The translations under genes and the position numbers were made by a program. The notes under the pieces are model-generated. The model was not told the DNA's origin. It worked only from the letters and a program-made list of their open reading frames with translations, and searched no databases. From positions 719-64,718 of the forward strand of contig JBEKBS010000009.1 of assembly GCA_050015275.1 (NCBI GenBank): a stretch of DNA of 64,000 bases, read 5' to 3'. Shown here in pieces: positions 1 to 53,774 of the stretch (positions are counted from its first letter, which is position 1; each line of letters starts with the position of its first letter). This DNA comes from Candidatus Aminicenantales bacterium (GTDB lineage: Bacteria > Acidobacteriota > Aminicenantia > Aminicenantales > Saccharicenantaceae).

Positions 1-540
1 AACTATCCCGTGGGCTACGCCTCTTGGGCTTCGTTCGCCAACTTCACCAGCCCCAACTCGTTCGTCAACACCTATGGCCAGCTGCCCTACAGCCGGCCCA
101 TCCTGATCAAGCTTTACGGCACGTTCAACCTGCCTTACAAGTTGATGTTCTCGTTCAACTACATGCATGCCGACGGCACCCCCTGGGGACGGACGGTCAA
201 TGTCCAGCCCCCGGCGGACTGGGCGGCGGCCAATAACGTCTCGTCGACGCCTTACAGTATCTACGTAGAACCGCCCGGCACCCGGCGGACCGAGGCCACG
301 GACAGCCTCGACTTCAGACTCGAGAAGGACTTCAGGCTGGGCCCCGGCAAGCTCGCCGCGTTCGTCGACGCTTTCAACGTTCTCGGCGCTTACACGTTGA
401 CCGTCGCCGATAACCCCGGCGGGACATGGAGGCCGGACGACAACAACTCGACGACCGGCAGCTACACCCCCGGCTCGACAGGCCTGCGTGGATTTGTCGG
501 ATCCCGCATGTTCAAGTTCTCTCTGCTCTACAGGTTCTAA
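1..540 (+). CDS. C-terminal fragment of an outer-membrane beta-barrel protein, probably a TonB-dependent receptor; the gene enters from upstream of the window
   Basis: The ORF runs in from the window edge. The C-terminus ...FKFSLLYRF ends in Phe with alternating aromatic/hydrophobic residues, which is the OM beta-barrel signature. A GC-rich imperfect hairpin follows the stop. Confidence 0.45.
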   Translation, partial: NYPVGYASWASFANFTSPNSFVNTYGQLPYSRPILIKLYGTFNLPYKLMFSFNYMHADGTPWGRTVNVQPPADWAAANNVSSTPYSIYVEPPGTRRTEATDSLDFRLEKDFRLGPGKLAAFVDAFNVLGAYTLTVADNPGGTWRPDDNNSTTGSYTPGSTGLRGFVGSRMFKFSLLYRF

Positions 541-618
541 ACACGGCATTCTGATCGGGACAAGGGGGAGGGGCCATGCGGCCCTTTCCCCTCCGGTCCC
601 TCTAGGAGGGGGAAGGGC

Positions 619-870
619 ATGTCCAGGGAAACCCTATCGTCCCGTGAGAGCTGTCAGGCCGTTTTCAAACGGGAAAAGCCCGATAGGGTCCTCATGGACT
701 TCTGGGGGACAGACGAGGCTGTCGCCAGCCTCATGAAACAGACGGGGCACGCGAGTCAGCGGGCGGCCCTCGAGAAACTGCATGTCGACTTTGTCGTCAA
801 GCTCGAGCCGCGCTATGCTGGGTTTGCACTCGCACCGGGTCTCCACACGTTAGGCCGCGACGAGGGCTAG
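619..870 (+). pseudogene. 83-aa ORF resembling only the N-terminus of a URO-D / MtaA-family (uroporphyrinogen decarboxylase-like) protein; probable truncated remnant
   Basis: A strong SD (AGGAGGGGG) lies 7 nt upstream of ATG 619. Residues SRESCQAVFKREKPDRVLMDFWGT fit the URO-D family N-terminal pattern (R-E-x3-A-x4-E-x-PDRVP-x-D-x-GGT). Full-length members are about 340 aa, but this ORF stops at 83 aa. Confidence 0.3.
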
Positions 871-1033
871 ATCCTGGCGCCCTGCCATAATATCCAGGCC
901 CTGACCCCACCAAAGAACATCAAGGCGATGTAGGGTACGGGGTGCGAGAATAGATGGATATAAACACGGCGGCGCGCGAATGAGCTGTAACAACGGCAAT
1001 CTGCCGGCGCAGAGTGTTTGATACGGAAATGGA

Positions 1034-3676
1034 ATGAAACGAACAACTTTTCGAATCCTCCTGCCGGGGCTTGCATCGTTAGCTGCCTGGGCCGCGGTTG
1101 TGTCGGCACCCGCGTCGAACGACACCGTTCGGTCCGCTATTGCCGTCCAGGCGCCGGGTTCAATGGCCCAGAGCTCAGAGGACGCCGAGTGGGGCTATCT
1201 TAAACTCTGGTACCGGCGTCCGGCCGCGGTCTGGAATGAAGCGCTTCCGGTCGGAAATGGGCGCCTCGGGGCTATGATCTACGGCGGCGTCAACGAAGAG
1301 TGCGTTCAGCTTAACGAATCCACCGTTTGGACCGGCGGCCCCTATGACCCCTCGAACCCGGAGGCCCTGAAGGCCTTGCCGGAGGTTCGGCGGCTCGTTT
1401 TCGCCGGGAAATTCCGTGAGGCGCAGGAACTCTTCGGCCGGAAAATGATGGCCCGTCCGCCCAACCAGCAGAAATATCAGCCTCTGGCGGACCTCCAGAT
1501 TAGTTACGCCGGACTGGGGCGTCCGACCGACCAAAACAAGCAACTCACGGGCTATAGGCGGGAACTCGACTTGGACACGGCCGTCGCCGCCGTACGCTAC
1601 ACAATTGGCGGCGTGACTTACACACGTGAAGTCTTTGCGAGCCCAGCCGACGAGGTCATTGTAGTGCGTTTCGCGGCCTCCAAGCCCGGCAACTTGTCCT
1701 TCAGCGTTCGCTTGACGGGACGGACGAACGGGCTCACCATGGACGATACGTACGCTCGGATCACGGAGCTCGACGGCAGATCCGTGGAATCTCCGGGCGA
1801 CGAACATTGGGAGAGCAACGGTCTCGGTTCGGACTGCCTCCGGTTGCGGGGAAGGACGGCCACATACCTCGGGATCAAGGGCCGCGTCGAGTACGAGGCC
1901 ATGGCCAAGGTCATCCCCGAAGGCGGCCGTGTCCAACTCGACGGCGATGTAGCGACCGTTAGCTGCGCCGATGCCGCAACCATCCTGGTCACGGCGGCCA
2001 CGAACTTCCTGAGTTTTAAGGACCTTGGTGGCGACCCGGCCCCCCTGGCCGAAAGCAGTCTCGCGGCCGCCGTCACGAAGTCCTATGAAAAACTCAGGGA
2101 AGATCATGTCGCCGGACACCGGCGGCTCTTCCGCCGGGCCGCACTGGTCCTGCCGCGCACTGATGCGTCGGGCCTTCCCACCGACGAGCGCCTGCGGCGG
2201 TTCCAGGCCCGGGGCGATGACCCGGCGTTGGCCGCGCTCTATTTTCAATTCGGCCGCTATCTTCTCATTTCGAGCTCTCGCCCGGGCGGGGTTCCGGCCA
2301 ACCTCCAGGGTCTCTGGAATGATACGATGAATCCGGCCTGGGGCAGCAAATACACGACCAACATCAACCTCGAGATGAACTACTGGCCCGCCGAAGTCGC
2401 GAACCTCGATGAGTGTTTCGAGCCGTTCGTCCGGCTCGTCGAAGGCCTGGCCGAAACGGGGGCGAAAATCGCGAAAACGCATTACGGCGCCCGCGGTTGG
2501 ATGCTCCACCACAACACCGACATCTGGTTGGCCGCCGCTCCGGTCAACGGTCCGTACGTGGGGACCTGGCCGGCGGGCGGGGCTTGGCTATGCAACGAGC
2601 TCTGGGACCGCTATCTCTTCACTGGGGCGGCGGATTACCTGCGCCGGATTTACCCGCTTCTCAAGGGAGCGGCCGAGTTCTTTCTCGATACGCTCGTTGA
2701 GGAGCCACGCCACAAGTGGCTCGTGACCTGCCCCTCGAGCTCCCCCGAAAACTGGCCCCATTATCCCGGCAACGTGAGCTTCACCGACGAGGTGCGCAAA
2801 GTCAAGGTCTTCGCCACGATTGCCGCGGGTCCGGCCCTGGACATGGAGCTATTGCGGGACCTATTCAGCGCCTATGCCGACGCTTCTCGCACGCTCGGCC
2901 TGGACGCAGCGTTCCGGAGCGCCGTCCTTCGTGCCCGGGATCGCCTGGCCCCTCTTCAGATTGGCCGCTACGGCCAGCTTCAGGAGTGGCTCGACGACTG
3001 GGACGATCCCAAGGACACGAACCGGCACCTTTCCCATCTCTATGCTCTCTACCCCGGTCGTGCGATCGGACTCGACGCGACAGCCCGGCTCGCGGCCGCG
3101 GCCCGGATGTCCTTAACCATGCGCGGCGAGGGAGGCATGGGTTGGTCGATTGCCTGGAAGACGGCCCTGTGGGCCAGGCTGCGCGATGCGGAGAAGGCGT
3201 ACGCCTCGTTGCGTAGTCTCCTTCAACCGCAGGATATGTCCGAAGGCGATCCGAGAAAGGGCGGCACGCTTCCGAACCTTATGGACATCGGTCCGCCCTT
3301 CCAGATTGACGGGAACTTCGGCGGGACGGCTGGAATCGCGGAGATGCTGCTCCAATCTCAGAACGACACGATTGACTTTCTTCCCGCGCTTCCCGCGGCT
3401 TGGCCCGATGGTGTTCTTCGCGGCTTCGCCGCCCGCGGTGGCTTCGAAGTGGACATCGCTTGGAAAGCCGGCCGCTTGACGTCCGGGTCGATTCAGTCGC
3501 GGCTGGGCAAGCCATGCCGCCTCAGAGTCCGATGGCCGGTGCAAGTGACCCTCAGTGACGGCATGCCCGTAAAGACGGTTGAAAGCGGGGAGGACATGTT
3601 GACCTTTCCGACGGAACGGGGCGAGACCTATCATGTCGCTCCCGCTGGCGCCGGCGAACCGGAAGCTCTAAAATAA
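1034..3676 (+). CDS. Glycoside hydrolase family 95 alpha-L-fucosidase (secreted)
   Basis: N-terminal signal peptide. GH95 hallmark motifs are present: [19 protein letters not shown]...[20 protein letters not shown]...[15 protein letters not shown] and [16 protein letters not shown]. The product is 880 aa. Confidence 0.9.
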
Positions 3677-3688
3677 AGGAGATCGAAG

Positions 3689-4705
3689 ATGAGACAGGCC
3701 GTGATGACCTCTCCCGGCGAGATTGAGTTCAGGGACGTGCCCGTTCCCAAGCCCGGCCCCGACGAAGTCCTCATCCGCATCAAGACGATCGGGGTCTGCG
3801 GATCCGACGTTCACGTCCGGCACGGACGTCACCCGTTCACCTCTTACCCTGTCGTCCAGGGCCACGAATTCTCGGGCGTCGTCGAGTCCGTCGGAAAACG
3901 AGTCCGTAACATCCGGCCTGGGCTGAAAGTCACGGCCACTCCCCAGATCGTTTGCGGCCGCTGCGGCCCCTGCCGGCGCGGGGATTACCATATCTGCGAC
4001 GTCCTCAAGGTCCAGGGCTTTCAGGCCCCCGGCTGCGCCCAGGACTTCTTTGTCACCGAGGCGGCGAAGATCATCCCCCTCCCCGCGTCGTTCAGCTTCG
4101 AACAGGGGGCTCTCGTCGAGCCGGTGGCGGTCGGGGTCCACGCGGTCGCCCGGGCCGGAAGGATCGGCGGGACGAACGTCGTCGTCCTCGGCGCCGGCCC
4201 CATCGGCAATCTCCTCGGGCAAGTGGCCCGGGCCGCGGGCGCGAACGTTCTGATCAACGACATCAGCGATTTCCGCCTCGAGATCGCCCGGCGGTCCGGG
4301 CTCCGGTCGGTATCCAATGCGAAGGCGGAGAGTCTCGAGGAGGCCGTGGTGCGCGTCTTCGGCCGTAAGGGCTTTGACACGGCCTTTGAATGCGCCGGCG
4401 CCGAGGCCGCCATCAATCTGGCCATTGGAGCCATCCGGAAAGGCGGGACGATCGTCGCCGTCGGAGTCTACGGCGAACGACCGCGGGTCAATATGGGATT
4501 TCTCCAGGACCGGGAGCTCGTCCTGAAGGGGACTCTGATGTACCAGAGGAGGGATTTCATCAAGGCGGTCAGGCTGATCACGGACCGGCGCGTCATCACG
4601 AAGCCCCTGGAGACCGTTCATTTCCCCTTCGAAAGCTATCGGAGCGCCTATGACTTCATCGACCAGGAAGGGGACAGATCCATGAAGGTCTTTATCGACC
4701 TTTGA
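3689..4705 (+). CDS. Zn-dependent medium-chain alcohol/polyol dehydrogenase (MDR family; sorbitol or L-idonate dehydrogenase-like)
   Basis: Motifs GVCGSDVH, GHEFSGVV and CGRCGPCRRGDYHICD give catalytic and structural Zn sites. A GxGxxG Rossmann motif (VVLGAGPIGN) is present. The gene starts 13 bp after the GH95 stop. Confidence 0.85.
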   Translation: MRQAVMTSPGEIEFRDVPVPKPGPDEVLIRIKTIGVCGSDVHVRHGRHPFTSYPVVQGHEFSGVVESVGKRVRNIRPGLKVTATPQIVCGRCGPCRRGDYHICDVLKVQGFQAPGCAQDFFVTEAAKIIPLPASFSFEQGALVEPVAVGVHAVARAGRIGGTNVVVLGAGPIGNLLGQVARAAGANVLINDISDFRLEIARRSGLRSVSNAKAESLEEAVVRVFGRKGFDTAFECAGAEAAINLAIGAIRKGGTIVAVGVYGERPRVNMGFLQDRELVLKGTLMYQRRDFIKAVRLITDRRVITKPLETVHFPFESYRSAYDFIDQEGDRSMKVFIDL

Positions 4706-4745
4706 ACGGGCGCTCGGGACGTGCCGCGGAGAGAGCCAAGATTAT

Positions 4746-5930
4746 ATGCGTCCGGAGGATAGAGAACACATGAAACCATTCCACTACCACCAACCAACGG
4801 AAATTCGGTTCGGCCGGGGCCGCGTGGCCGATATCGGGCCAGCCGTGGCCCGCGTCGGAAGCCGCTGTCTCCTCGTGACGGTCCCGGAGACCCCCGAGTT
4901 CGGGGGACTTTTCGGAAGGGTCAGACGTTTGCTGACCGAGGCCAAGATCCCCTTCGCCCATTTCGACGGCGTCATCCCCAATCCCACCTGCGACGTCGTG
5001 TCGGCGGGTGCCAGAATGGCGAGGGATTTCAAGGCCGACATCGTCCTTGGCGTCGGCGGCGGCTCGAGCATGGACACGGCCAAGGCGATCGCCGTCGAAG
5101 CCACCCACCCGGGCAGGGCCTGGGATTACCTGTTCTTCCGGGAAAGCCAGCCGACCGGCAAAACCCTGCCGATTGTCGCTGTCACGACTACCTCAGGAAC
5201 CGGATCCCATGTCACTCAGGTGGCCGTCATCACGAATCCGGAGGAAAAAAACAAATCCGCGCTGTTTCATCCGCTGCTCTACCCCCGGACGAGCATTGTC
5301 GATCCCGAGCTGATGCGTTCCGTGCCAGGCCGGGTGACGGCCACGACCGGGTTCGACGTATTTGCCCACGCCTTTGAGAGTTTTATCAACCCGAACGGAT
5401 CTCCTTATACGGACCTGATGGCTCTGGAGGCCCTGGCAATCGTCGCCAGACACCTCCCCTCCGCCGTCAAGGACGGAACGGACCTTGAGGCCAGAGAACA
5501 AATGGCGTGGGCCGATACGCTGGCCGGCCTCTGCATCGCCAACTCCGGTGTGACCCTCCCTCACGGCATCGGCATGGCTATCGGCGGACTCTATCCCCAT
5601 GTCGCTCACGGCGAAGCCCTGGCCGTGGTCTACCCGGCGATCCTGCGCTACAGTTTCCGGGCCGCCCCCGCTAAATTCGCCGCCGTGGGCCGGATCCTCG
5701 ATAAAAGAATTGCCGCCGAGACAGGGCTGAAGGCCGCCGAGAAATCGTGTGCCGCGATCGAGCGCTTCATGAAGAAGATCGGGATGGATCTCAGGCTCCG
5801 CGATCTCCACGTGCCCGAAGATGAGCTGGCCGCGCTCGCGATCCAATCTCTCGTGCTCCCGGACTACCGGAACCATCCCAAGGTCGCGACCCTTGATGAG
5901 GTCGCGCGGATCCTCGGCGAAAGCCATTGA
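4746..5930 (+). CDS. Iron-containing (group III) alcohol dehydrogenase, lactaldehyde reductase / 1,2-propanediol oxidoreductase-like
   Basis: The Fe-ADH fold shows a GGGSSMDTAKAIA motif and His-rich metal-site segments (HAFESF..., HGIGMAIGG). It is co-directional with the GH95 gene, consistent with L-lactaldehyde handling in fucose or rhamnose catabolism (inference). Confidence 0.8.
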   Translation: MRPEDREHMKPFHYHQPTEIRFGRGRVADIGPAVARVGSRCLLVTVPETPEFGGLFGRVRRLLTEAKIPFAHFDGVIPNPTCDVVSAGARMARDFKADIVLGVGGGSSMDTAKAIAVEATHPGRAWDYLFFRESQPTGKTLPIVAVTTTSGTGSHVTQVAVITNPEEKNKSALFHPLLYPRTSIVDPELMRSVPGRVTATTGFDVFAHAFESFINPNGSPYTDLMALEALAIVARHLPSAVKDGTDLEAREQMAWADTLAGLCIANSGVTLPHGIGMAIGGLYPHVAHGEALAVVYPAILRYSFRAAPAKFAAVGRILDKRIAAETGLKAAEKSCAAIERFMKKIGMDLRLRDLHVPEDELAALAIQSLVLPDYRNHPKVATLDEVARILGESH

Positions 5931-5938
5931 AGAAACAG

Positions 5939-8059
5939 ATGGCGCATCATGGGGGAGGAACCGTGAGCCAACGTCTGCTTTGGTCCCTTGTTGCGCTCTT
6001 CACCATTCTCTCGGGAGCGGTCGCTGAACTCCGGTCACCGGCCGCTCGAAAGGACCCGGTGGCCTTGTGGACGTTCGACGAAGGATCGGCGACCCGGAGG
6101 GCGCTCGATGCGGCGAGCGGCGTCCAGGATGCGATCGAGGGGCATTTCAAGCTTGTCACAGGGATCTCGGGAACCGGCCTTAGGTTCGACGGCTACACCA
6201 CCCGCGTCATCCGGAAAGGAAACCGGGCTCCGCGCCTGGGCGAGGCGTTCACGATGGAGGCCTGGGTCGCCCCGGCGGCGCTGCCGTGGAATTGGTGTCC
6301 CGTCCTGAGCCAGGAGAAGGACGGGCTTGTCGGCTATTCTTTCGGGATCGGGCCCCAAGGCGAACTCGGACTGAGGGTCTCTGTCCGCGGCGAATGGAAG
6401 GAGTGCCTGTCGCGCACCAGGATTCCCACGGGAAAATGGACACATCTCGCGGCCGTTTTCGACGCCCGGAGTGGGATCACATTGTTCCTTGACGGCCGGG
6501 AGGCGGGCTCGCTGGCTTTTCAGGGGATCCCGGCCTATGCCGGCGGCGCGGACCTCCTGATCGGGATGAACCCCGAAAAGAGAAAGCCGTCGCACATCGT
6601 CGGGTCGGGCGTCGGAACGGTCGAAGGCTGGTATGCGTTCGACGGGATCATGGATGAGATCAGGATCTTCGATCGAGCGCTTTCCGCCGAAGAGCTGAAG
6701 CAAACCTATGAGTCTGTGCGGCCGGCCTCAGCCCCCGACCTCGCCGTCCCCCGGCTGCCTTCCGGCCCTCAAGGGCCGGGGCGTTTCGGGGCTTATTATA
6801 CGAAGCTCCGGTACGACGACGGCTGGGATGCCCTGTGGCCCGTCGGTCCGGCCGCGGACATCGTCGTCGAGTTCGACGATTCGCCGGTCCGCGTCGTTTT
6901 CTGGCGGGGGACGCGCTACGGCCCGGCCTGGGTCATGGAGAACGGACAGTGGCTGGCCGACCAGAGCGTCGAAACATGGGACGACACCGAGGGCTGCTAC
7001 GAGCACATGGAAGACCCTCGCTGCCTCTATTCCCAAGTCCGGATCCTGGAATCGAGCGAGGCCCGGGCCGTGGTCCATTGGCGCTATGCCCCCGTGAGCT
7101 CGCGCAACCATTTCTGGCGGGTCGACGAGAAATCCGGCTGGGGATTATGGATGGACGAATATTACTATTTTTATCCCGACCTGACGGCCGTCCGCAAAGT
7201 GGTTTGGCCCGCAGAATTCCTGGGCCGGGAATCACCGTCCGAAATCCAGGAAACCATCCCCCTGTGCCAGCCCGGTCAAAGCTCCGAGGACGTCCTGAAC
7301 CGGGACGCCCTGACGCTTCTCAACCTGAAAGGGGAGAGCCAGGTGTACTCCTGGCCCGGAGAGATCAATGATCCTGACCACCGCCGGAAGCTCCAGCCCG
7401 AGAATCCGAATATCCAGGTCGTGAACCTGAAGTCGAAGGCCAAGCCCTTCATCCTCTTCGAACCGGGCTGCCAGATGAATGTTTATGTCGGGAGGGTCAG
7501 GGCCGGCGTCTCGAATTTCCCCGCGTACAACCACTTTCCGGTCTCTCTCCTGCCTTCGGACGGCCGGTACGCGGTGGCGGCCGACCGCGTGACGAGTTTT
7601 TCCATCTCCTACACCGATCCTCCGAGGCACGCCGGGCCCGAAGAGACCACTTGGGCGAGTTGGGTCTATGGCGTCACGGAGGGCCCGTACAGAGGCCTGG
7701 CGGCGCTCGGAAGGTCCTGGGCCCTAGCGCCGGCCTTGTCCGTTCAGGGTCCCGGCCTTCGTTCCGAAGGCTATGACCTCTCGCAGCGAGCCTATGTGCT
7801 TGCCTGCCCCCACCCAGGGAGGCCGGAGGCCGTGGTCTGCGAGCTCCAGGCTGCCCCGGAAAGGCCGGCGGTGAATATCGTGCTTTATCTCCGGGGCTGG
7901 GGCGACGGAGGCGCCGCGGTGACGGTGGATGGACAGCCCGTCGAGCGCGGCCCGGCCCTCAAGCTTGGATATGTGCGAACGATCGACGGGACCGATCTTG
8001 TGGTCTGGATCAAGAAGGAGTCGGTCCGGCCGGTCCGCATCGGCTTGGGGCCCCGATGA
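5939..8059 (+). CDS. Secreted uncharacterized protein with an N-terminal concanavalin A-like/LamG (Laminin_G_3) domain and a large C-terminal domain of unknown function
   Basis: A signal peptide follows MAHHGGGTVSQRLLWSLVALFTILSGAVA. The LamG-like block (about aa 40-260) has conserved Trp/Gly pattern ...WTFDEG...GLRFDGY...EAWV...KWTHLAAVFD...LFLDG. The remaining 450 aa have no family I can name. A TTG 12 nt upstream overlaps the Fe-ADH stop. Confidence 0.65.
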   Translation: MAHHGGGTVSQRLLWSLVALFTILSGAVAELRSPAARKDPVALWTFDEGSATRRALDAASGVQDAIEGHFKLVTGISGTGLRFDGYTTRVIRKGNRAPRLGEAFTMEAWVAPAALPWNWCPVLSQEKDGLVGYSFGIGPQGELGLRVSVRGEWKECLSRTRIPTGKWTHLAAVFDARSGITLFLDGREAGSLAFQGIPAYAGGADLLIGMNPEKRKPSHIVGSGVGTVEGWYAFDGIMDEIRIFDRALSAEELKQTYESVRPASAPDLAVPRLPSGPQGPGRFGAYYTKLRYDDGWDALWPVGPAADIVVEFDDSPVRVVFWRGTRYGPAWVMENGQWLADQSVETWDDTEGCYEHMEDPRCLYSQVRILESSEARAVVHWRYAPVSSRNHFWRVDEKSGWGLWMDEYYYFYPDLTAVRKVVWPAEFLGRESPSEIQETIPLCQPGQSSEDVLNRDALTLLNLKGESQVYSWPGEINDPDHRRKLQPENPNIQVVNLKSKAKPFILFEPGCQMNVYVGRVRAGVSNFPAYNHFPVSLLPSDGRYAVAADRVTSFSISYTDPPRHAGPEETTWASWVYGVTEGPYRGLAALGRSWALAPALSVQGPGLRSEGYDLSQRAYVLACPHPGRPEAVVCELQAAPERPAVNIVLYLRGWGDGGAAVTVDGQPVERGPALKLGYVRTIDGTDLVVWIKKESVRPVRIGLGPR

Positions 8060-8165
8060 GCGGATCTGAGTCATGCTATAATGAAAAATCCTTAAGCCTT
8101 CGGCCTGTCTCCGTCGCGCGGGTCCAGCGGCACCCGCGGTGGGCGGCGGATCGGGAGGAATCGCG

Positions 8166-9182
8166 ATGAAAAAGACGGTCCTTATCCTCGCCGTCGTCGT
8201 TTTGGCGGCCGTGGTCGTCGTCGTTAAAGTGACACGTACGAACGTGGGGGTCGAGCCCGTCTGCTGGTATGGCATGATGCCCCATCCCTACGTCAGCGAA
8301 GTCCGGAGCGGCGTCGAGCGGTTTGAACGGGAGACCGGCACCCGGGCGGCCAAGGTCGTCGGCCAGCAGTGGACCCAGGACAACGAGAATGTCAACGTCG
8401 AGGCCCTGTCCACCAAGGGATACAAGGCCTTCAGCGTCTATCCCGGGGACCCCGCCGGCGCCAATGCCCTTTTCGCCCAATTGAAAAGCCGCGGCCAGCT
8501 CGTGGTGGCCTATGGGGCGGAACCGGACCTGCCCACGCCCGTTCCCTTCACCGTGGCCACGGATATCAAGGCGGCGGCCATGACGGCCGCGGAGAAGCTC
8601 ATCGGACTCATGGACGGCCGGGGCCGGATTCTCAATGTCCTCGAGATGGTCACGGACATCAACACCAAGAAGCGCGACGAGGGCATCCGAGAGGTCGTGG
8701 CCCGGCATCCCGGCGTGGAAATCGTCCAGACGATTTCGGACATGACCCAGGTCAGCGAAGCCGTCACCAAGCTCCAGAGCGCCCTCGCGGCCCGGATGGA
8801 CGAGATCGACGGCATCATCACCACGGGCTACAACCCGACCATCGCCGCCGCGTCCGTTTTGACCGAATGGCACCGCGACCCCCGGCACAAGCGGATCCGC
8901 TTCATCGGGATCGACACCGGCCCGACCGTGCTCCAGGCGATCCGCGACGGCTTCATCGACGCCACGATCGCCCAGAACCCGCCCGGACACGGTTACCTTT
9001 CGGCCCGATTGCTCGGGCTGATGCTCGACGGGTGGACGCCCAAAGCCCCCTACCAGTTCATCAACGCGGGAATCGTCATCGTCACGAAGGACAATATCGA
9101 CACGTACGCCACCGAGGTCCGGAAGATCACCGACGGGATCGCCGCAGAGCTCCGGACGAAGTATCTCCAACCGCCGAAATAG
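8166..9182 (+). CDS. Sugar ABC transporter periplasmic substrate-binding protein (PBP type I, RbsB/LacI-like fold)
   Basis: MKKTVLILAVVVLAAVVVV gives a signal/anchor. The two-lobed PBP1 pattern resembles ribose/xylose-binding proteins. It is the first gene of an SBP-ATPase-permease operon. Confidence 0.85.
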   Translation: MKKTVLILAVVVLAAVVVVVKVTRTNVGVEPVCWYGMMPHPYVSEVRSGVERFERETGTRAAKVVGQQWTQDNENVNVEALSTKGYKAFSVYPGDPAGANALFAQLKSRGQLVVAYGAEPDLPTPVPFTVATDIKAAAMTAAEKLIGLMDGRGRILNVLEMVTDINTKKRDEGIREVVARHPGVEIVQTISDMTQVSEAVTKLQSALAARMDEIDGIITTGYNPTIAAASVLTEWHRDPRHKRIRFIGIDTGPTVLQAIRDGFIDATIAQNPPGHGYLSARLLGLMLDGWTPKAPYQFINAGIVIVTKDNIDTYATEVRKITDGIAAELRTKYLQPPK

Positions 9183-9197
9183 GAGCGCCGCCGATCC

Positions 9198-10706
9198 ATG
9201 CTCGAACTCAGGGGCATCCGCAAGCGCTTCCCGGGCGTCCAGGCGCTCGACGGCGTCAGCCTGCGGTTCGAGCCCAGAGAGATCCACGCCGTCGTCGGGG
9301 AGAACGGTGCCGGGAAGAGCACCCTCATCAAGGTCGTCACCGGCATCGAGCAGCCCGACGAGGGCGAAGTTCTTTATGACGGGGAGCGCCTCTGCTTTCG
9401 CGACTACCGCGACAGCCTGGCCCGCGGCATCGACGTCGTCAGCCAGGAGATCCAGATCATCCCCGAAAGCACCGTCGCCGAGAACATCATGCTCGACAAG
9501 CTCGTGACGGTCGGCCGGACAGGGATCATCGATTGGAAGGCCGTCGAAAGCGTCGCCCGGAGATACCTCGACCTGGTCGGGCTGGCCCTCCCCCCGGACG
9601 CCGTGATCAAGAACCTGAGCGCCGCCCACAAGCAGCTCGTTCAGATCGCCAAGGCGCTGGCCGCCGACGCGCGCGTCCTTTTTCTCGACGAGCCGACGAG
9701 CTCGCTGACCGAACACGAGGCGGGCAACCTGTTCCATATCCTCAGGGACCTCCGGGGCCGGGGCGTCACGATCATCTTCGTTTCCCACAAGGTCGAGGAA
9801 GTGTTCGCCTTGTGCGATGCGGTCAGCGTGCTCCGTGACGGCCGCCACGTCGGCACGCGGAGGATCGCCGGCCTCGAACCGGGGGAACTCGTCCGGATGA
9901 TGATCGGACGGGAGATCGTGGAGGCCCATCTGGGCCCGCTCGACGTCAACCGGGACCGCGAGATGCTGCGGGCCGAGAACGTGGTTCGCGAGGGTAAGGT
10001 CGATAATGTCAACTTCACCCTTTACGAAGGAGAGATCCTCGGCTTCTACGGTCTGGTCGGGGCGGGCCGCACCGAATTGGCCCGCGTCCTGATCGGCGAG
10101 GACCGGCTTGACCGCGGCGCAGTCTATGTCCGGGGGGAGAAGGCCTGCATCCAGAGCGTTGCGGACAGCCTGGAGCGCTACCGCATCGGCTACGTCACGG
10201 AGAACCGCAAGGAGGAGGGGCTGCTTCTCCAGTCCCCCGTCACGACCAACGTCACGATCACCGTCTGGCCCCGTCTTCGCAGCCGGCTGACCCGGGCCAT
10301 CAGCCGGGCCGGGGAGTTGGCATTGACGCGACGCATGATCCGGGCCCTGGACATCCGGACGACCGGGCCCTACCAGAAGACCGAGGACCTGAGCGGCGGC
10401 AACCAGCAGAAGATCTGCATTTCGAAGTGGCTGGCCGCCGATTGCGACATCCTGATCATCGACGAGCCGACGGTCGGGGTGGACATCGGGGCCAAGGAGC
10501 AGATCCACCAGCTCATCTGGGACCTGGCGAAGAACGGGCGGAAGGCGGTCATCCTCATCTCCTCGGACATGGCGGAGGTCATCAAGGTCGCCAGCCGGAT
10601 CCTCGTCTTCAGGGACCGCCGTGTCGTCGGCGAGATCACGGGCGTGGACGAGGAGACCAAGACCTACGGGCAGGTCAGTGCGGCCATCGGCCGGTATTTG
10701 CAGTGA
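9198..10706 (+). CDS. Sugar ABC transporter ATP-binding protein with duplicated ABC domains (RbsA/MglA type)
   Basis: Two Walker A sites (GENGAGKST and a second P-loop), two LSGG signature regions, Walker B sites and a D-loop. The product is 502 aa. Confidence 0.9.
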   Translation: MLELRGIRKRFPGVQALDGVSLRFEPREIHAVVGENGAGKSTLIKVVTGIEQPDEGEVLYDGERLCFRDYRDSLARGIDVVSQEIQIIPESTVAENIMLDKLVTVGRTGIIDWKAVESVARRYLDLVGLALPPDAVIKNLSAAHKQLVQIAKALAADARVLFLDEPTSSLTEHEAGNLFHILRDLRGRGVTIIFVSHKVEEVFALCDAVSVLRDGRHVGTRRIAGLEPGELVRMMIGREIVEAHLGPLDVNRDREMLRAENVVREGKVDNVNFTLYEGEILGFYGLVGAGRTELARVLIGEDRLDRGAVYVRGEKACIQSVADSLERYRIGYVTENRKEEGLLLQSPVTTNVTITVWPRLRSRLTRAISRAGELALTRRMIRALDIRTTGPYQKTEDLSGGNQQKICISKWLAADCDILIIDEPTVGVDIGAKEQIHQLIWDLAKNGRKAVILISSDMAEVIKVASRILVFRDRRVVGEITGVDEETKTYGQVSAAIGRYLQ

Positions 10707-10720
10707 GGAAGGACACGATC

Positions 10721-11728
10721 ATGGCAACGAAGACCACAGCGGAGAAGGACGGGGCGAAAACCGGGGCGGGGTTCGACCGGCGGGAAAGGATAAGCGGCCG
10801 GACCCTCGGGCTGGTCATCTCGACCGTCGTCCTCTTCGCGATCCTGGCGCTTCGTTCCCAAAGCTTCCTCAGCAGCTACACCATGTTCGTTATTTCGCGC
10901 CAGATGGCGTTCTATGTCCTGATCGCTCTGTCGCAGGCCTTTTGCCTTGTCGTGGGCCAGATGAGCCTGGCGGTCGGAGCGATCGGCAGCATCGCCACCG
11001 TTGTCCTCGGCCTGGGACTCGATACCTGGGGCCTCCCGGCAGGCCTGGCCGTGGCCCTGGCCCTGGGCGTCGGCGTTCTGGCTGGCTGGCTCAACGGCCT
11101 GATCATCACCCGCCTCAGGATCGATTCGTTCATCGTCACGCTGTCCATGATGTTCATCTTCATGGGTTTGCGCTCTGGCATCTCGGGCGGATCGCCCTAC
11201 AAGGTCTCAGAGTCATTTAGCGTCATCGGCCAGAAAAGCCTCTGGGGGGTCCCGTTCGTTTTCATTCTCGTGGTCCTTCTGCTGGGGCTTATCGGATTCA
11301 TGTACAGGAACACGGTCTTCGGCCGCCGGATGCTGGCCACGGGCGGCAACGCGGCCGCGGCCCGGCTGTCCGGGATCCATACCGACCGTATGGTCATCTC
11401 GGCCCACGTCCTGTCCGGGGCGTTCGCGGCGCTGGCGGCCGTCCTGTGGGCGTCCAAGCTCGGCTCGGCCGCCCCCGAAACCGGCGACGATTGGCTGATC
11501 ATCTCGTTCGCCGTAGCCATCATCGGCGGGACAGGGCTCAACGGCGGGATCATCTCCGCGCTCGGGATCTTCATGGGGTCGTCCATTTTCATGCTCATCA
11601 AACACGGGCTGGTCGAGGTCAAGGCGAACCCCTATTACGCCAACTCGTTTCTCGGCCTGCTCATCCTGCTGGCGATCGTCGTCGACCGGGTCCGGGAAAT
11701 TTATAGCGGCAAACAGAAAGGGAGATGA
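10721..11728 (+). CDS. Sugar ABC transporter permease (RbsC/branched-chain family)
   Basis: The ATG at 10721 is preceded by GAGGAAGG. About 9 predicted TM helices are present; the conserved permease loop has several possible placements. The long upstream extension in the ORF track (10427 onward) is out of context. Confidence 0.85.
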   Translation: MATKTTAEKDGAKTGAGFDRRERISGRTLGLVISTVVLFAILALRSQSFLSSYTMFVISRQMAFYVLIALSQAFCLVVGQMSLAVGAIGSIATVVLGLGLDTWGLPAGLAVALALGVGVLAGWLNGLIITRLRIDSFIVTLSMMFIFMGLRSGISGGSPYKVSESFSVIGQKSLWGVPFVFILVVLLLGLIGFMYRNTVFGRRMLATGGNAAAARLSGIHTDRMVISAHVLSGAFAALAAVLWASKLGSAAPETGDDWLIISFAVAIIGGTGLNGGIISALGIFMGSSIFMLIKHGLVEVKANPYYANSFLGLLILLAIVVDRVREIYSGKQKGR

Positions 11729-14229
11729 GTCTCATGAACAAACCGTCCGTGAAAAAAGCGATCTACGGCGCTGCGGCACTCCTCATCATCTTTTCGGCCT
11801 TCAGCCCGGCGGCCGGTTCCGCGCGCCGTGCCACCGATCCTTCGGATCCCCCAGCTCAGGCCTCAACGAAACTGCCTGTCCCCGAGCGCGGATTCATCAG
11901 CTCCGAGCCCGGCCTGACCTGGGAGCAGGGCCTTCTCAGCGGTAATGGGACCATCGGGGCGAGCGTCCTGGGCCGGCCGTTGGACGAGATCGTCGTCTTC
12001 AGTCACAAGCATCTGTTCATGCCCGAGCGCGCCCCACTCCTGCCGCCGGCCACCGCCACTCGGCTGTTCGAGATCCGCCGCCTCATCGACCGCGGGCTTT
12101 ACGCGCAGGCGGGGCAACTGGCGGAAGATGTCGCCGAACAGAAGGGATTCCTCTATCCCGACCCGCTCATGCCCGCTTTTGACCTCAGGGTCAAGATGGC
12201 CGCGGAAGGCGCCGTCACGGAATATCTGCGCTCGACGAATTTTGAGACGGGCGAGACGGCCGTTCACTGGTCCGATAACCGGGGGGTGTTCGAGCGCCGG
12301 CTTTTCGTCTCGCGCGCCGATGGGATCGCCCTGATGCAGATCATCGGGCCCGGCCCGGGCCGGGTGAACTGCCGGCTGGAGCTCACGCCCCGGGAGCCCA
12401 AGAACGAGAGGTTCAGGGCGAACGTCACCAACCTGGCCATGACCACCGATGCGTCCACCCTGACGTATCGCAACGGCTTCACCCACGCGTATCCCGGAAG
12501 CATCCAGGCGTTGGAAGGTGTCGCGCGGGTCATTGCCAAGAACGGCACGACGACGACGGACGGACCGGCCTTGGTGGTCACGGGCGCGGACGAAGTGCTT
12601 GTTTTCGTCGATATCAGGGTGCTCGACGACTTCGATAAATCCATGATCGAAGCGACGAAACGGGCCCTGGCCGGCCTGCCCCCGGTTTATAGCGAGCTTC
12701 TGCGGAGACACGAGAAAATCCACGGGGAGATGTTCCGGCGCATGCGGCTCGACCTGGGTGGCGGCCCGGACCGCGGCCTGACGTCGGAGCAGTTGCTGGC
12801 CAAGTCGACCGACGCCGAGCCCTCGAGGGCGCTCCTGGAAAAGGTCTTCGATGCCGGCCGCTACAATATCATCTCCAGCACGGGCGATCTGCCGCCGACC
12901 CTCCAGGGCGTCTGGGCCGGGACCTACGACCCGCCCTGGTCCAGTGATTTCACCCACAACGGGAACGTCCCCTCGGCCCTGGCCAGCATGCTCATGGGGA
13001 ACACGCCCGAACTCCTTCTGGCCTATACATCCTATATGGAGGGACTGGTCCCGTATCTCGAGGTCAACGCGAAGATGATCTTCGGGGCTCGGGGGATCGC
13101 TCTGCCGTCACGGTCGACCACGAACGGCTACAATAACGCGTTCGAAGCGGATTTCCCCGGACAGTTCTGGGTCGCCGGCGCCCCCTGGGCGGCCCATTTT
13201 TTTTATGACTATTGGCTCTACACGGGCGACCGGAAGTTCCTGGCTGAACATGCCCTGCCTTTCATGGAAAAGGCGGCCCTCTTCTTCGAAGATTATCTTT
13301 ACGAAGGCCCGGACAGGAAATACGTGTTCAGCCCGACCCAGTCGCCCGAGAACTCGCCCAGCAACACCGGGTCCCAGACGACGTTCAACGCCACGATGGA
13401 CGTGGCGGCGGCCAAGGAACTTCTCCGGAATACGGTGGCCGCCTCCCGGGAACTGAACGTCAACAAGGACAAGATCCCCGTCTGGGAGAAGATGCTGGCC
13501 AAGATGCCGGAGTACCTGATCAACGAGGACGGCGCGGTCCGGGAATGGCTGACTCCCAAGCTCGCGGACAATTACGATCACAGACACAATTCCCAACTTT
13601 ATGCCCTGTTTGACGGGATGCCGGATGAGATCGCCAAGAACCCGGAGCTCAGGGCCGCTTTCAAGCGGGCCATCGAGCTCAAGCTCGAGCGCTACTGGGG
13701 CCATTGGCAGAAACAGGGGGGCTTCATGTCCTTCGGCCTGGTCCAGCTCGGGCAGGCCTCGGCCAGCCTGGGAGAAGCGGACCTGGCCTATCGTTGCCTG
13801 GTGCCGCTCCTCAACCGCTATTGGCTGCATAATCTGGCGTCCATGCACAATGCCAAGGAGCTCTTCAACACGGACATCAGCGGGGGTCTGCCGGCTGTCC
13901 TCATCAAGATGCTCGTGGCCTCGGATCCCGGCGTCGTCCGTCTCTTCCCAGCGCTTCCCTCGGCCTGGCCGTCGGGGACGATCGAAGGGGTCCTTTGCCG
14001 CGGCCAGATCGAGATCACGCGCCTGTCGTGGGACGGCGGAAAGATCCAAGCCGCGTTCAAGACGGCCAGGGCCCAGGACATCTCGCTCTATGCGCCGGGG
14101 AAGATCGAGAGCATTGCCGTGAAGACCGGCAAGGCGGCCATCCAGAACCTGAATGACGCAAGGGCACGCAAGCTGTCGCTGCCGGCGGGTCAGGAGGTTT
14201 TGGTCGAACTCGAGATCGGCGGGCGCTGA
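11725..14229 (+). CDS. Divergent GH95-family glycoside hydrolase (second paralog), secreted
   Basis: The start overlaps the permease stop (ATGA). Its signal-like N-terminus is followed by blocks clearly homologous to GH95: TWEQGLLSGNGTIGASVLG, and GDLPPTLQGVWAG...GNVPSAL compared with [13 protein letters not shown] of the first GH95. It is 834 aa. An alternative start lies at 11734. Confidence 0.75.
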   Translation: MSLMNKPSVKKAIYGAAALLIIFSAFSPAAGSARRATDPSDPPAQASTKLPVPERGFISSEPGLTWEQGLLSGNGTIGASVLGRPLDEIVVFSHKHLFMPERAPLLPPATATRLFEIRRLIDRGLYAQAGQLAEDVAEQKGFLYPDPLMPAFDLRVKMAAEGAVTEYLRSTNFETGETAVHWSDNRGVFERRLFVSRADGIALMQIIGPGPGRVNCRLELTPREPKNERFRANVTNLAMTTDASTLTYRNGFTHAYPGSIQALEGVARVIAKNGTTTTDGPALVVTGADEVLVFVDIRVLDDFDKSMIEATKRALAGLPPVYSELLRRHEKIHGEMFRRMRLDLGGGPDRGLTSEQLLAKSTDAEPSRALLEKVFDAGRYNIISSTGDLPPTLQGVWAGTYDPPWSSDFTHNGNVPSALASMLMGNTPELLLAYTSYMEGLVPYLEVNAKMIFGARGIALPSRSTTNGYNNAFEADFPGQFWVAGAPWAAHFFYDYWLYTGDRKFLAEHALPFMEKAALFFEDYLYEGPDRKYVFSPTQSPENSPSNTGSQTTFNATMDVAAAKELLRNTVAASRELNVNKDKIPVWEKMLAKMPEYLINEDGAVREWLTPKLADNYDHRHNSQLYALFDGMPDEIAKNPELRAAFKRAIELKLERYWGHWQKQGGFMSFGLVQLGQASASLGEADLAYRCLVPLLNRYWLHNLASMHNAKELFNTDISGGLPAVLIKMLVASDPGVVRLFPALPSAWPSGTIEGVLCRGQIEITRLSWDGGKIQAAFKTARAQDISLYAPGKIESIAVKTGKAAIQNLNDARARKLSLPAGQEVLVELEIGGR

Positions 14230-14319
14230 CCATGCCCGGGGCCGCCGACGTTCTGGCCCCGCAGAGCAGGTCGTGCTGGCATGATTTCTTGTGGTGATAA
14301 AAAACGTCGCCGAGGAGAC

Positions 14320-16095
14320 ATGATGAAACGCTTCCTGATTTCGTTTGTTCCCGGCCTGATCATTTTCGCTCTCGCCGGATGCTCGCGGGGGGTCACCGAG
14401 AGGACCGTCGCCTACACGTCCCGGCCGTGGCCGCCGCGGGTTTGGAAATCCGAAGCGCCCCCCGGCTGTCCCTTCGAACCCTCCCGGGACATCCGGGGTA
14501 TCGCCTTCACCCACAAATCAGCGACGTACACGGATGCCGATACTTGGTATCCGTCCTGGGCCTCCGACGGCAACATGTATAGCGGCTGGACGGACGGTGA
14601 GATCGGCGAGGAGTCCTGCCATTCGAGCGGCGGGGCGAAGGCTCGCACGGGCAACGCCAAGATCGCCGGCGACGATCCCTTGAATCTGACGGTTACCTCT
14701 CTCGGGTCAGAACCGGCCTCGGCCCTGCCGTACGGCGGACGCTATCCCAGCGCCAACCTCGTGCACAACGGGGTCTGGTATTACGGGACGTACTGCGTCG
14801 ACTTCGACCTGTCCAAACCTGAATACCGGGACCTCTACAGTTGGGCCATCTGCGGCCCGGTGCCGGGATTCCGGATCTCGTTGGACTACGGGAAGACCTG
14901 GATCCCGAGCCCGCTTTCGCCCGAAAAGCCACTCTTCCCGGAATCGGGGAAGGACGGGCGTCAGGTCAAGATGGGGACGCCCCATTTCGTGGACTTCGGA
15001 TGCAACCTGGAGCATTCCCCGGACGGGAAGGCCTACCTCGTCGGCCACGGCGCCCTAGACGTGGACCCCACGCCGCGCATCGCCGGGAACAGCTGGATCG
15101 CAGGCGACGCGGTCTACCTCGCGCGCGTAACTCCCAGCCCGAAAAACATCAACGATGTCAGGACTTACGAATTTTTCGCCGGCCGGGGGACTGACGGGCG
15201 TCCCGTCTGGTCCCGGAATTTCACGGACATCCGGCCGCTCCTGACCTGGGACGACCACATGGGCTGCGCGACGATAACCTATGATGCCCCGCTCCGCAAA
15301 TATCTGATGTGCGTCACCGACGGTTGGCCGGGCGTCGAGGACATGAACTCATACATCCTGGAAGCGGACGAGATCACAGGACCCTACAGGATGGTCACAT
15401 ACATGAACAAGTTCGGCCGGCAGGGCTACTTCCTGCACTTCCCGTCGAAGTTCATCAGCGCCGACGGCCGGACAGCGTGGCTATCCTACTCCGCGAACTT
15501 CCACAAAGCCTACTTCGGCAACCGGACGGCGGCCGATCCGATGGGCAGCCGCTACGCCTGGACTCTTCAGGAGGTCAAACTCCTGGGCGGGACCGGGGAA
15601 ATGTCCGGCCCGACGGAGAGCGATATGCCGCCGCTGGATCCGCTCAAGAACGAGAATAATATCGCCCTTCGCGCCAGGGTCAACGTCTCGTCGGTCCACA
15701 AGAAAAACAAGCCTTTCACTGAGCTGATGGAATATTTTGGCGAGGGGGCCGTAGACGGGATCGTCGACCTGAACACCGGGATCAACGCGCACGAATGGGT
15801 GAGCGGCGGCGAGCGGGAGACGGCCATGATCCGCCTCAGCTGGGATTCGCCGCAGACGGTGCGACGGGTCTGGCTTTTCGACCGTCCGGATCCGACCGAC
15901 CACATCACCTCGGGCATGCTGCTTTTCAGCGACGGGAGCACCATCCGCGTGGGTGAGCTTCCGAACGACGCGAGATCCTGCAAGGAGCTGAGCTTCCCGC
16001 CCAAGTCCGTCACCTGGGTCGTGTTCGTCGTCGATTCGGTTTCTAGAGAAACGGCCAACGTTGGCCTTGCCGAGATGGCGGTCTTCAGGGACTGA
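14320..16095 (+). CDS. Lipoprotein with a DUF4185-like beta-propeller domain (putative glycoside hydrolase) plus an extra C-terminal beta-sandwich domain
   Basis: SD AGGAGAC precedes ATG 14320. A lipobox LAGC is present. Conserved blocks DTWYPSWASDGNMYSGWTDGE, NLVHNGVWYYGTYC and GTPHFVDFG are shared with the paralog at 50308..51669. The DUF4185 assignment is from memory and unverified. Confidence 0.65.
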   Translation: MMKRFLISFVPGLIIFALAGCSRGVTERTVAYTSRPWPPRVWKSEAPPGCPFEPSRDIRGIAFTHKSATYTDADTWYPSWASDGNMYSGWTDGEIGEESCHSSGGAKARTGNAKIAGDDPLNLTVTSLGSEPASALPYGGRYPSANLVHNGVWYYGTYCVDFDLSKPEYRDLYSWAICGPVPGFRISLDYGKTWIPSPLSPEKPLFPESGKDGRQVKMGTPHFVDFGCNLEHSPDGKAYLVGHGALDVDPTPRIAGNSWIAGDAVYLARVTPSPKNINDVRTYEFFAGRGTDGRPVWSRNFTDIRPLLTWDDHMGCATITYDAPLRKYLMCVTDGWPGVEDMNSYILEADEITGPYRMVTYMNKFGRQGYFLHFPSKFISADGRTAWLSYSANFHKAYFGNRTAADPMGSRYAWTLQEVKLLGGTGEMSGPTESDMPPLDPLKNENNIALRARVNVSSVHKKNKPFTELMEYFGEGAVDGIVDLNTGINAHEWVSGGERETAMIRLSWDSPQTVRRVWLFDRPDPTDHITSGMLLFSDGSTIRVGELPNDARSCKELSFPPKSVTWVVFVVDSVSRETANVGLAEMAVFRD

Positions 16096-18392: not shown

Positions 18393-18417
18393 TCAGGGGC
18401 CGGAAGGAGAACCGGGG

Positions 18418-21109: not shown

Positions 21110-22429
21110 TTGTCCTTGCCATAGACTTCCAGCTCCGCCAATTGAAAACGGTATTCGAGCGGGCTGGAAGATATTTTGCCCAGCCTGGTTGCATAAACGC
21201 GGACATAACGGCAACGTCGGCTGGTGGAAACGAAAGATTGCACCCCCAGCACCTTCTGCCCGTGACCGTATCCGGTCCGGGTCACCAGGTCCGTCCAGTT
21301 GTTGAGGTCATCTGACGCTTGAATCTTGAAATCGGTCGGAAAGCCGCCACCCTCGGCCTCCTGGTCATCTCGCGGGCAGAGTTTGATGTTATCGATCCGG
21401 ACCGCCCGTCCTAGATCCACGCACACCCATTCGCTATGGTTCGGCGTATCGTGACCGGCGCTGCTCCAGCCGAGCGTGCCAGGCAGACTGTGAGTGATTT
21501 CGTTCACCAAATGATTTGTTCCCCAGCCGGCCTTTTCCAAAGAAGAACTGGCGGAAACCGGCTTCGCAGCGGCAAGGTCCAATTCCTGCTTTGCCTGCCG
21601 GCTGGCTAAAACACCAGGCATTCACTTCGTCGACGTCCCATTCCAGGTCGTAGGGCGGCTTCTCATCAAGAGTGCTCCCGCCATACTTATGGTAGGAAAC
21701 AAAATCGAGCGGCACCTCGGGATGCCCCCTGACATAATCTAACAGGGGTCCGAGCTTGGAGGTTGGAGAGAGAACGCCGGCGTCGGCAGCTCCGCCCACA
21801 TGAGCGGTGGGGTCCGTTTCTTTTATCGCTTCCGCGGTTTTGACATACAGGGCAACGTACTCCCGGCTCGAGCCCTTGAAGAACCGGACTATATCCGGCT
21901 CGTTCCAGACTTCCCAGCACCAGCCGTTGGAGCCGAGGTCCCTGTAGTGCTGAACATAGGCCTTGACGATTTGCTTCCACTCGTCCAGGTTTGTGGGAAC
22001 GCTGGCGGCGTCGCCGCCCTCGGGGAGCAGCACACCGGGGCAATACGCCAGGCACATCAGCGGAGTCATCCCCTTGTGGAGCATCGGTTTGATCACCCGG
22101 TCCAGTCGGCTGAAGTCGAACCGGAGTTTCCCGGCTTCGTCCCGGGCGGCCACCCGGTAGAATTTATCGTTCACCAAATGATCCAATCGGATCATCTTGA
22201 AGCCGATGGCGGCCAGATTATCGTAGGCTTCCGGTAGCCAGTTCAGGTTTTTCATCGGCTCATAGCCGCCCACCGATCCGTTGAGCAGCCGGGCTTTCTC
22301 CAGCGTGCCAGCCGTGGAATTATAATCTGCTCTGACGGTCAACAGATGCCAAGGAGATTCAGCCACGGACGCTATGGTGCAACCTACGGTCAAGGCGCAG
22401 ACCGCGAAGACCCGCGTGATTCGTATCAT
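21106..22429 (-). pseudogene. GH39-family glycoside hydrolase fused to a C-terminal discoidin/CBM32 domain, interrupted by a +1 frameshift at an A4/T4 homopolymer near 21607-21610
   Basis: The 331-aa ORF (21434..22429) carries lipoprotein signal LTVGC and GH39 blocks (FDFSRLD...KGMTP, HYRDLGSNGWCWEVWNEPD, YVALYVKTAEAIKETDP..VGG, LDFVSYHKYGG). The 171-aa ORF (21106..21621) in the adjacent frame is a discoidin domain. Removing one T from GTGTTTTAGCC gives a continuous reading ...NAWCLASRQAKQELDLAAAK... Confidence 0.7.
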
Positions 22430-23845: not shown

Positions 23846-23952
23846 TTCGCTTCCTCCTGAGCAAACCGCCATGACCTCAGCAGACACCGTCGATATCAAC
23901 GGCACAAGAACGGGAGGATAGGAGATCCCTATGCCCGCGACGGAACAGACAG

Positions 23953-53756: not shown

Positions 53757-53774
53757 GGTCCTTCTCCTTCCGGT

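Follow-up and report, generated by a model that had tools for sequence, protein, structure and literature searches.

A LamG-linked β-supersandwich protein from an Aminicenantales bacterium is a candidate for a new carbohydrate-active enzyme family

The Target Gene and Its Product

The DNA analyzed here (the window) is a stretch of 64,000 nucleotides from a Candidatus Aminicenantales bacterium (GenBank assembly GCA_050015275.1, contig JBEKBS010000009.1, positions 719 to 64,718 of the forward strand), and all positions given are those of the window. Near its 5′ end, four co-directional genes on the plus strand are separated by gaps of 12, 40, and 8 nt. They encode a GH95 glycoside hydrolase, a Zn-dependent and an Fe-dependent alcohol dehydrogenase (Zn-ADH and Fe-ADH), and a LamG domain protein, the target of this study. 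The initial annotation of the window, made from the letters alone, gave this arrangement correctly, with gaps of 13, 41, and about 9 nt in place of those above.

The target gene was taken from the open reading frame (ORF) list and its translation and has a span of 5939..8059, ending with the stop codon at 8059. Depending on the start codon the product has 706 residues (ATG 5939), 710 residues (TTG 5927), or 698 residues (GTG 5963); the length of 710 residues originally paired with position 5939 belongs to TTG 5927, and the ORF itself stands. The true start is most likely GTG 5963, because a GGAGG motif lies at 5954–5958, four bases 5′ of this codon, and the homologue P0001, 89% identical to the target, is also 698 residues long. 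Residue numbers are nevertheless all counted from ATG 5939. The N terminus reads as a predicted Sec-type signal peptide (aa 1–29; 5939..6025, plus strand) with the hydrophobic core LLWSLVALFTILSGAVA, and aa 11–29 are helical in the structural model. Signal peptide-like N termini are present in nearly all of 42 aligned homologues, several with lipobox cysteines. A promoter and terminator scan of 500–12000 gave a site count not above that of shuffled sequence.

Domain Organization and Predicted Structure

Pfam reported a single domain in the target, Laminin_G_3 (PF13385; aa 101–253, 87.8 bits against a cutoff of 27.6, E = 1e-24), which was matched in all 42 aligned homologues, and NCBIfam returned a weak LamG-type match alone. 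Scoring above the gathering cutoff and modeled as a β-jelly-roll, the LamG part is classed as an ordinary Laminin_G_3 member, in keeping with the concanavalin/LamG lectin-like N-terminal domain described in the initial annotation. It covers aa ∼40–260 (6056..6718, plus strand), has a concanavalin A-like jelly-roll, and probably serves as an accessory module for carbohydrate binding. Domain 4 of the GH43 arabinanase AbnA (PDB 5hon) and other Laminin_G_3 modules are comparable to this part of the target only. Unlike in AbnA, the domain joined to LamG in the target is neither a GH43 nor another described catalytic domain.

No match to aa 262–706 was found in Pfam, NCBIfam, or the PDB sequences, whether the query was the single sequence or a profile of 42 sequences, and Pfam searches of the 42 family members at E values up to 1 detected nothing besides LamG-type models. 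This region of ∼445 residues, which we call the C-module, had already been described as lacking a nameable family; homology to an unrelated family such as a peptidase was absent from the sequence libraries and from the fold searches.

The full-length AlphaFold model had a mean predicted local distance difference test score (pLDDT) of 85 and a predicted template modeling score (pTM) of 0.82. The C-module was modeled and searched alone because the full-length fold search was swamped by LamG matches. The separate model of aa 262–706 (pLDDT 84, pTM 0.89) agrees with the full-length one. In the model a proline-rich linker connects LamG to a large β-domain (aa 283–597; 6785..7729, plus strand), the conserved core of the C-module and its putative catalytic part. 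It is followed by a small β-sandwich (aa 598–706; 7730..8056, plus strand), which is poorly conserved in sequence and whose modeled secondary structure has a pLDDT >90. The mature target is thus predicted to be an exported three-part protein made of a LamG module, the large β-domain, and the small C-terminal β-sandwich.

Fold comparison of the C-module model gave scores of 15.0 for the PL26 exo-rhamnogalacturonan lyase (PDB 5xq3), 14.3 for GH38, 13.8 and 13.5 for the GH174 endo-1,3-fucanases 9k1g and 8jd7, ∼12 for galactose mutarotases, and 10–12 for PL8/12/15/17, GH2, OpgG/OpgD, and YidC β-domains, all at 4–11% identity. Foldseek, which the initial annotation had proposed as a check, matched a mutarotase and LacZ domain 5 at TM-scores of 0.25–0.34 and returned no unrelated family. 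Because the structure-search matches and Foldseek agree at the level of fold, the large domain is assigned, as modeled, as a galactose mutarotase-like β-supersandwich with no close solved relative. This fold is common to the C-module and the galactose mutarotase superfamily, including the accessory domains of GH2, GH38, and PL8/12/15/17. The supersandwich of the target is free of the TIM-barrel or (α/α)-toroid catalytic partner that accompanies GH2/GH38/PL8-type accessory domains. The supersandwich fold is itself catalytic in mutarotases, PL4, GH174, and GH186.

The C-module shares its fold with the aldose epimerases, resembles PL26 and possibly GH174 at the fold level, and, judged by sequence, belongs to none of the three. 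The likeness to the GH174 endo-1,3-fucanases Fun174A (8jd7) and Fun174Sb (9k1g) would be one of fold; no match to 8jd7 or 9k1g was found among PDB sequences with the single sequence at E ≤ 1 or with the family profile at E ≤ 10. A catalytic triad of D119/E120/E218 is reported for Fun174A (PMC11943901). In the target, D406–E407 and, ∼100 residues on, E508 recall this arrangement, and all three residues are conserved in the family alignment; we treat the resemblance as a lead only. GH187 is likewise relevant. This family was defined by a newly discovered catalytic domain described as β-sheet-dominated (PMC12534559), and it includes Fun187A, an endo-1,3-fucanase from Wenyingzhuangia aestuarii reported to have a mass of 101 kDa (PMC11943901). 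A mass of 101 kDa, as given there, is similar to that of the ∼870–900-residue members of the target family that carry two LamG domains.

The fold also raises the question of whether the target is a mutarotase- or epimerase-type enzyme that works in the periplasm on sugars yet to be taken up, either released monosaccharides or residues of a polymer. Aldose 1-epimerase models of Pfam matched none of the 42 members at E ≤ 1, and there was no NCBIfam match. Known mutarotases are small cytoplasmic proteins, unlike the target. The fusions with binding modules and dockerins and the expansion of the family next to sulfatases, both described below, are more in keeping with enzymes active on polymers, and we consider a mutarotase very unlikely.

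Size, Distribution, and Conservation of the Family

A word-indexed search detected at least 1,790 relatives of the target. The best 120 of these are nearly all ∼700 residues long, come mostly from metagenome-assembled genomes (MAGs) of Aminicenantes, and are annotated as "LamG domain-containing" or "hypothetical." When the C-terminal 445 residues alone served as the query of an exhaustive HMMER search, 1,227 representative clusters (50% identity) were retrieved at E ≤ 1e-3 and 295 at E ≤ 1e-30. Family members were found at 265 loci in a scan of species-representative genomes, in Aminicenantes/Acidobacteriota, Bacteroidales, Planctomycetota (Phycisphaerae, Sedimentisphaerales, and Pirellulales), Verrucomicrobiota, and Lentisphaerae; the 80 of these loci that were inspected are all from MAGs or metagenome assemblies. 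Two or three family copies are present in several MAGs, and three stand in tandem in one complete genome. No match was obtained in a tblastn search of a plasmid collection with the C-module, so no plasmid of the collection is linked to the family, including the known fucoidan megaplasmids insofar as the collection contains them, and a literature search on LamG proteins in fucoidan or sulfatase contexts found nothing relevant.

Conservation was measured in an alignment of 90 sequences taken from the retrieved loci, among them paralogues as distant as 33% identity. In the supersandwich, 19.7% of columns are at least 95% conserved, with 32 conserved polar residues. The corresponding values are 8.1% and four for LamG (aa 40–260) and 1.8% and one for the C-terminal sandwich. 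Fourteen charged or histidine residues of the supersandwich are invariant (D307, R323, E345, E355, D359, R368, E371, R376, R382, D406, D414, H532, D541, and D549), nine of them Asp or Glu, and several tryptophans are also invariant.

The C-module also occurs apart from LamG. The relatives P0164 and P0219 consist of a signal peptide plus the C-module alone. A third apparent case, P0132, was rejected as a contig-end fragment. Elsewhere the C-module is combined with F5/8 type C (CBM32-like), Calx-beta, or PKD domains, one to three LamG domains, or dockerin, and no other catalytic domain was detected alongside it in the multi-domain relatives. The C-module is autonomous, and a catalytic module with binding modules added to it would show just such a pattern; as a sign of catalysis this evidence, read from sequence, is indirect.

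These data bear on the possibility that the target is a non-catalytic glycan-binding protein of the surface or periplasm, a lectin-like part of an uptake system feeding a TonB-dependent-like outer-membrane protein. Such a role would leave the very strong conservation of 32 polar supersandwich residues, nine invariant Asp/Glu among them, to be accounted for. The multi-domain relatives, already equipped with several binding modules (CBM32-like and one to three LamG) plus a dockerin, would moreover have zero catalytic domains. The gene for the outer-membrane protein, present upstream of the target's cluster (below), is not consistently adjacent to the family gene. We therefore judge a purely binding role to be improbable. 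Because the supersandwich is the most constrained part of the protein, the module is autonomous, and no other catalytic domain was detected in its relatives, we favor the supersandwich as the functional core of a large undescribed family and the probable catalytic module of a new family of carbohydrate-active enzymes, an assignment in which our confidence is evenly balanced.

Genes around the Target

The cluster extends on both sides of the four genes first described, in which the target had been placed last. At the window edge, 1..540 (plus strand) encodes the C-terminal end of a TonB-dependent-like outer-membrane β-barrel protein, identified by tblastn with the outer-membrane protein of a related locus, L082 (87% identity, 1e-109). 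The L082 protein has the Pfam domains CarboxypepD_reg and OMP_b-brl_4, and its gene is preceded by that of a ROK-family regulator, so that the locus looks like a polysaccharide utilization-type unit. The GH95 protein (1034..3676, plus strand), of the α-L-fucosidase/α-L-galactosidase family, matches Glyco_hydro_95_cat (3e-166) and the N- and C-terminal GH95 domains and has a hydrophobic N terminus taken as a signal peptide. Downstream of the target, an ABC transporter of the monosaccharide type is encoded on the plus strand by genes for a periplasmic sugar-binding protein (8166..9182; Peripla_BP_4, 4e-39; ATG 8166 following GGGAGGA), an ATPase with two ATP-binding domains (9198..10706; two ABC_tran stretches, 2e-51), and a sugar permease (∼10721..11728, the start being approximate; BPD_transp_2, 2e-32; AraH-like in NCBIfam at 2e-44, under the cutoff; the L082 orthologue has 335 residues). 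A second GH95 protein follows at 11725..14229 (plus strand; Glyco_hydro_95_cat, 4e-72), its N terminus read as a signal peptide. Signal peptides are found on the glycan-active proteins of the window; neither dehydrogenase has one. After the second GH95 gene, 14281–20670 encodes a lipoprotein with DUF7402, a GH78-like rhamnosidase that also carries an F5/8 type C domain, and a β-helix protein resembling GH141. DUF7402 proteins occur near family members in six of 79 loci.

The Zn-ADH (3689..4705, plus strand; Pfam ADH_N and ADH_zinc_N) is a cytoplasmic medium-chain dehydrogenase of the polyol/sorbitol dehydrogenase type. Its best PDB matches are sorbitol dehydrogenase (1pl6, 1e-55) and ketose reductase (5e-51), and it falls under every NCBIfam (equivalog) cutoff. 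The Fe-ADH (4746..5930, plus strand; Pfam Fe-ADH and ADH_Fe_C), also cytoplasmic, is of the lactaldehyde/1,3-propanediol reductase class. It matches NCBIfam lactaldehyde reductase at 1e-70, under the cutoff (238 versus 523 bits), and in the PDB 1,3-propanediol oxidoreductase (3e-64) and FucO (1e-50). In relatives, these genes are joined by a kinase that is fructokinase-like (2qhp, 4e-59; best NCBIfam match "fructokinase").

The first three genes had been read as a route from fucosides to lactaldehyde. That route is not established, because no fucose isomerase, fuculokinase, or fuculose-phosphate aldolase (FucI/FucK/FucA-type Pfam families) was found in the cluster or the scanned ORFs of the window, the Zn-ADH is nearest to sorbitol/polyol dehydrogenases, and the kinase is fructokinase-like; of a canonical L-fucose utilization cluster only GH95 and a FucO-class Fe-ADH are present. 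Catabolism of fucose and of rhamnose gives lactaldehyde, which makes lactaldehyde reduction by the Fe-ADH plausible. The pairing of a polyol dehydrogenase with a ketose kinase hints at a different, undefined sugar route.

The same genes bear on whether the target could be a polysaccharide lyase, whose supersandwich would β-eliminate a uronic acid-containing glycan while the neighboring reductases process the unsaturated product. PL26 is a fold match, at 10% identity and with no sequence-level match to its representative PcRGLX (5xq3), which unlike the target is an 881-residue fungal protein with other domains. Breakdown by way of 2-keto-3-deoxygluconate (KDG) is weakened because the cassette kinase is fructokinase-like and not KDG kinase-like. 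The genomic setting of the target also lacks recognizable uronate catabolism genes, and GH88, GH105, and KduI/KduD-type families are not among the recurrent neighbors in the top 25 families listed per scan. On this evidence we regard a lyase as unlikely.

Gene Neighborhood in Relatives

The proteins of the window and of the related locus L001 were searched against the ORFs of 79 related loci. Neighbors were counted in the 55 loci of at least 12 kb, and immediate neighbors in 73 loci. GH95 or a sulfatase is encoded in 45 of the 55 loci, with an S1 sulfatase in 29 and GH95 in 23. The other recurrent partners are Zn-ADH (25/55), Fe-ADH (17/55), an SSF symporter (17/55), a PfkB kinase (16/55), and a second family copy (15/55). 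Directly upstream of the family member is an Fe-ADH gene in 16 of 73 loci; directly downstream is a Zn-ADH gene in 13 and a sulfatase gene in 11.

Two gene orders recur. One is SSF - PfkB - Fe-ADH - target - Zn-ADH - (S9 hydrolase) - GH95, and the other is Zn-ADH - (PfkB) - Fe-ADH - target - ABC transporter - GH95; in each case a ROK regulator and a TonB-dependent-like outer-membrane protein are encoded ahead of the series. The association with GH95 proposed in the initial annotation is therefore real and spans several phyla, yet it is partial. GH95 is not the tightest partner; in Aminicenantes the closest are the two dehydrogenases, whose genes flank that of the family member in many of these bacteria. 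Across the loci, sulfatases are as frequent as GH95.

Further neighbors in relatives are GH29, GH106, GH78, GH127, GH2, GH31, GH10, and carbohydrate esterases, together with genes resembling those of hydroxyproline/serine catabolism. Proline-specific peptidases (S9 DPP-IV-like and M24) also recur beside family members, and at one locus (L081) an ornithine cyclodeaminase-family reductase and a serine dehydratase-like gene lie near the family member. Together with the GH29 gene next to an M24 aminopeptidase gene in the window (below), the recurrence of these peptidases, the cyclodeaminase-family reductase, and the serine dehydratase-like gene nearby is a hint of Ser/Thr/Pro-rich glycoprotein substrates.

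Two loci have particular settings. In L001/L006 (CP070750.1), the SSF-PfkB-Fe-ADH cassette, with three tandem family copies and sulfatases, is headed by a GFO/IDH/MocA oxidoreductase (4840–6189; 525 bits versus a cutoff of 750 for the NCBIfam "BT_2158 family glycoside 3-dehydrogenase"). This cassette also encodes a radical-SAM/SPASM protein, a possible anaerobic sulfatase maturase. In L084/L085, an 898-residue family member with two LamG domains (10001–12697) is flanked by carbohydrate esterase-like proteins (BD-FAE and GDSL), GH20, and a fusion of an esterase with GH29. It is placed under regulators of the AraC and two-component types, and this setting is unlike the dehydrogenase cassette.

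Proposed Function

From the observed domain composition, fold, export signals, conservation, modularity, and gene neighborhood, we hold with moderate confidence that the target is a LamG-tethered enzyme, a hydrolase rather than a lyase, acting on fucose/rhamnose-rich and often sulfated glycans. The Sec pathway would carry the protein to the periplasm or the outside of the cell surface, where the LamG domain would hold a complex glycan rich in fucose or rhamnose, sulfated in many lineages. A glycosidic linkage would then be cleaved by a putative cluster of conserved supersandwich residues, made up of carboxylates, arginines, and a single histidine. Acid/base hydrolysis is favored because invariant Asp/Glu residues are abundant; cleavage may instead proceed by β-elimination. 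Neighboring exo-enzymes (GH95 and, elsewhere, GH29, GH78, GH106, and sulfatases) would trim the products, and the released monosaccharides would enter through the adjacent ABC transporter, or the SSF symporter in relatives. The imported sugars would be processed in the cytoplasm by the Zn-ADH and the Fe-ADH, joined in relatives by the fructokinase-like kinase.

Several points weigh against this interpretation. Catalysis, substrate, and mechanism are what we infer for the target and for the family. Likeness to the catalytic supersandwich families is at the fold level only, at 5–10% identity and the TM-scores given above, and GH2, GH38, PL8, and others have this fold in accessory domains that are not catalytic. 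A single pocket formed by the invariant residues is putative, their invariance being read from the alignment, and H532, D541, and D549 are in or beside a low-confidence part of the model (∼aa 518–548), where pLDDT falls below 50 for aa 534–542 in the full-length model and for aa 518–531 and 533–547 in the C-module model. In the closest relatives the gene lies between two cytoplasmic dehydrogenase genes, an uncommon position for one that encodes a secreted glycanase. Novelty is qualified mainly by GH187, of which the target family may prove to be a part.

Overall, the target is a good candidate for a new family of carbohydrate-active enzymes on a known fold. The suggestion to that effect in the initial annotation agrees with the fold and the pattern of conservation, as well as with the export signal and the modular build of the family, and membership among such enzymes keeps its candidate status. 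A more specific proposal, which we put forward tentatively and hold to be somewhat doubtful, is that the C-module founds a new glycoside hydrolase (or lyase) family on a mutarotase-like supersandwich, cutting a linkage beyond the reach of known enzymes in fucose/rhamnose-rich, often sulfated glycans. Candidate glycans under this proposal are fucoidan-like polymers, sulfated algal or microbial exopolysaccharides, and complex pectic or glycoprotein glycans.

Few polysaccharides are degraded as slowly as glycans rich in fucose and sulfate, and knowledge of the enzymes that open these glycans is only partial. The C-module is abundant, confined to glycan-degrading lineages, and set in loci with fucosidases, rhamnosidases, and sulfatases. 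Enzymatic activity, if present, would bring CAZy a further family, allow many MAGs to be annotated better, and supply structural studies of complex glycans with a new tool enzyme. The tight cassette of Fe-ADH, target, Zn-ADH, and fructokinase-like kinase in Aminicenantes suggests that the released sugar follows a route not yet described. Were the tentative proposal above correct, Aminicenantes, Planctomycetota, Bacteroidales, and Verrucomicrobiota of anoxic sediments and peat would use the module as a core step in the turnover of recalcitrant glycan carbon.

Other Features of the Window

Two other long ORFs were considered and rejected. One of 810 residues (8076–10508, minus strand) has no family match, lies antisense to the genes for the sugar-binding protein and the ABC ATPase, and is spurious, a long ORF of the kind that GC-rich DNA typically contains. 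The other, of 705 residues (60912–63029), was considered as a paralogue of the target; it is of the β-lactamase family and has no similarity to the target.

The glycan degradation region is extended on the minus strand at 21434–26538 by GH39, a GH10 xylanase-family protein with a twin-arginine (TAT) signal, and a GH63/MGH1-like hydrolase. ORFs of 733 residues (41270–43468) and 453 residues (50311–51669, minus strand) have a coding-like bias in third-position GC content (GC3) and no Pfam match. Between them, 43574–48394 encodes a 1607-residue protein with GH43-like N-terminal and GH27-like (Melibiase_2) C-terminal regions and a long middle region without a match. A GH29 α-L-fucosidase gene (31660–33294) adjoins that of an M24 Xaa-Pro aminopeptidase on the minus strand (31660–34814), and at 52578–56332 the genes of an M24 peptidase and a POT-family peptide transporter (minus strand) lie beside that of a RhaT-type L-rhamnose symporter (plus strand).

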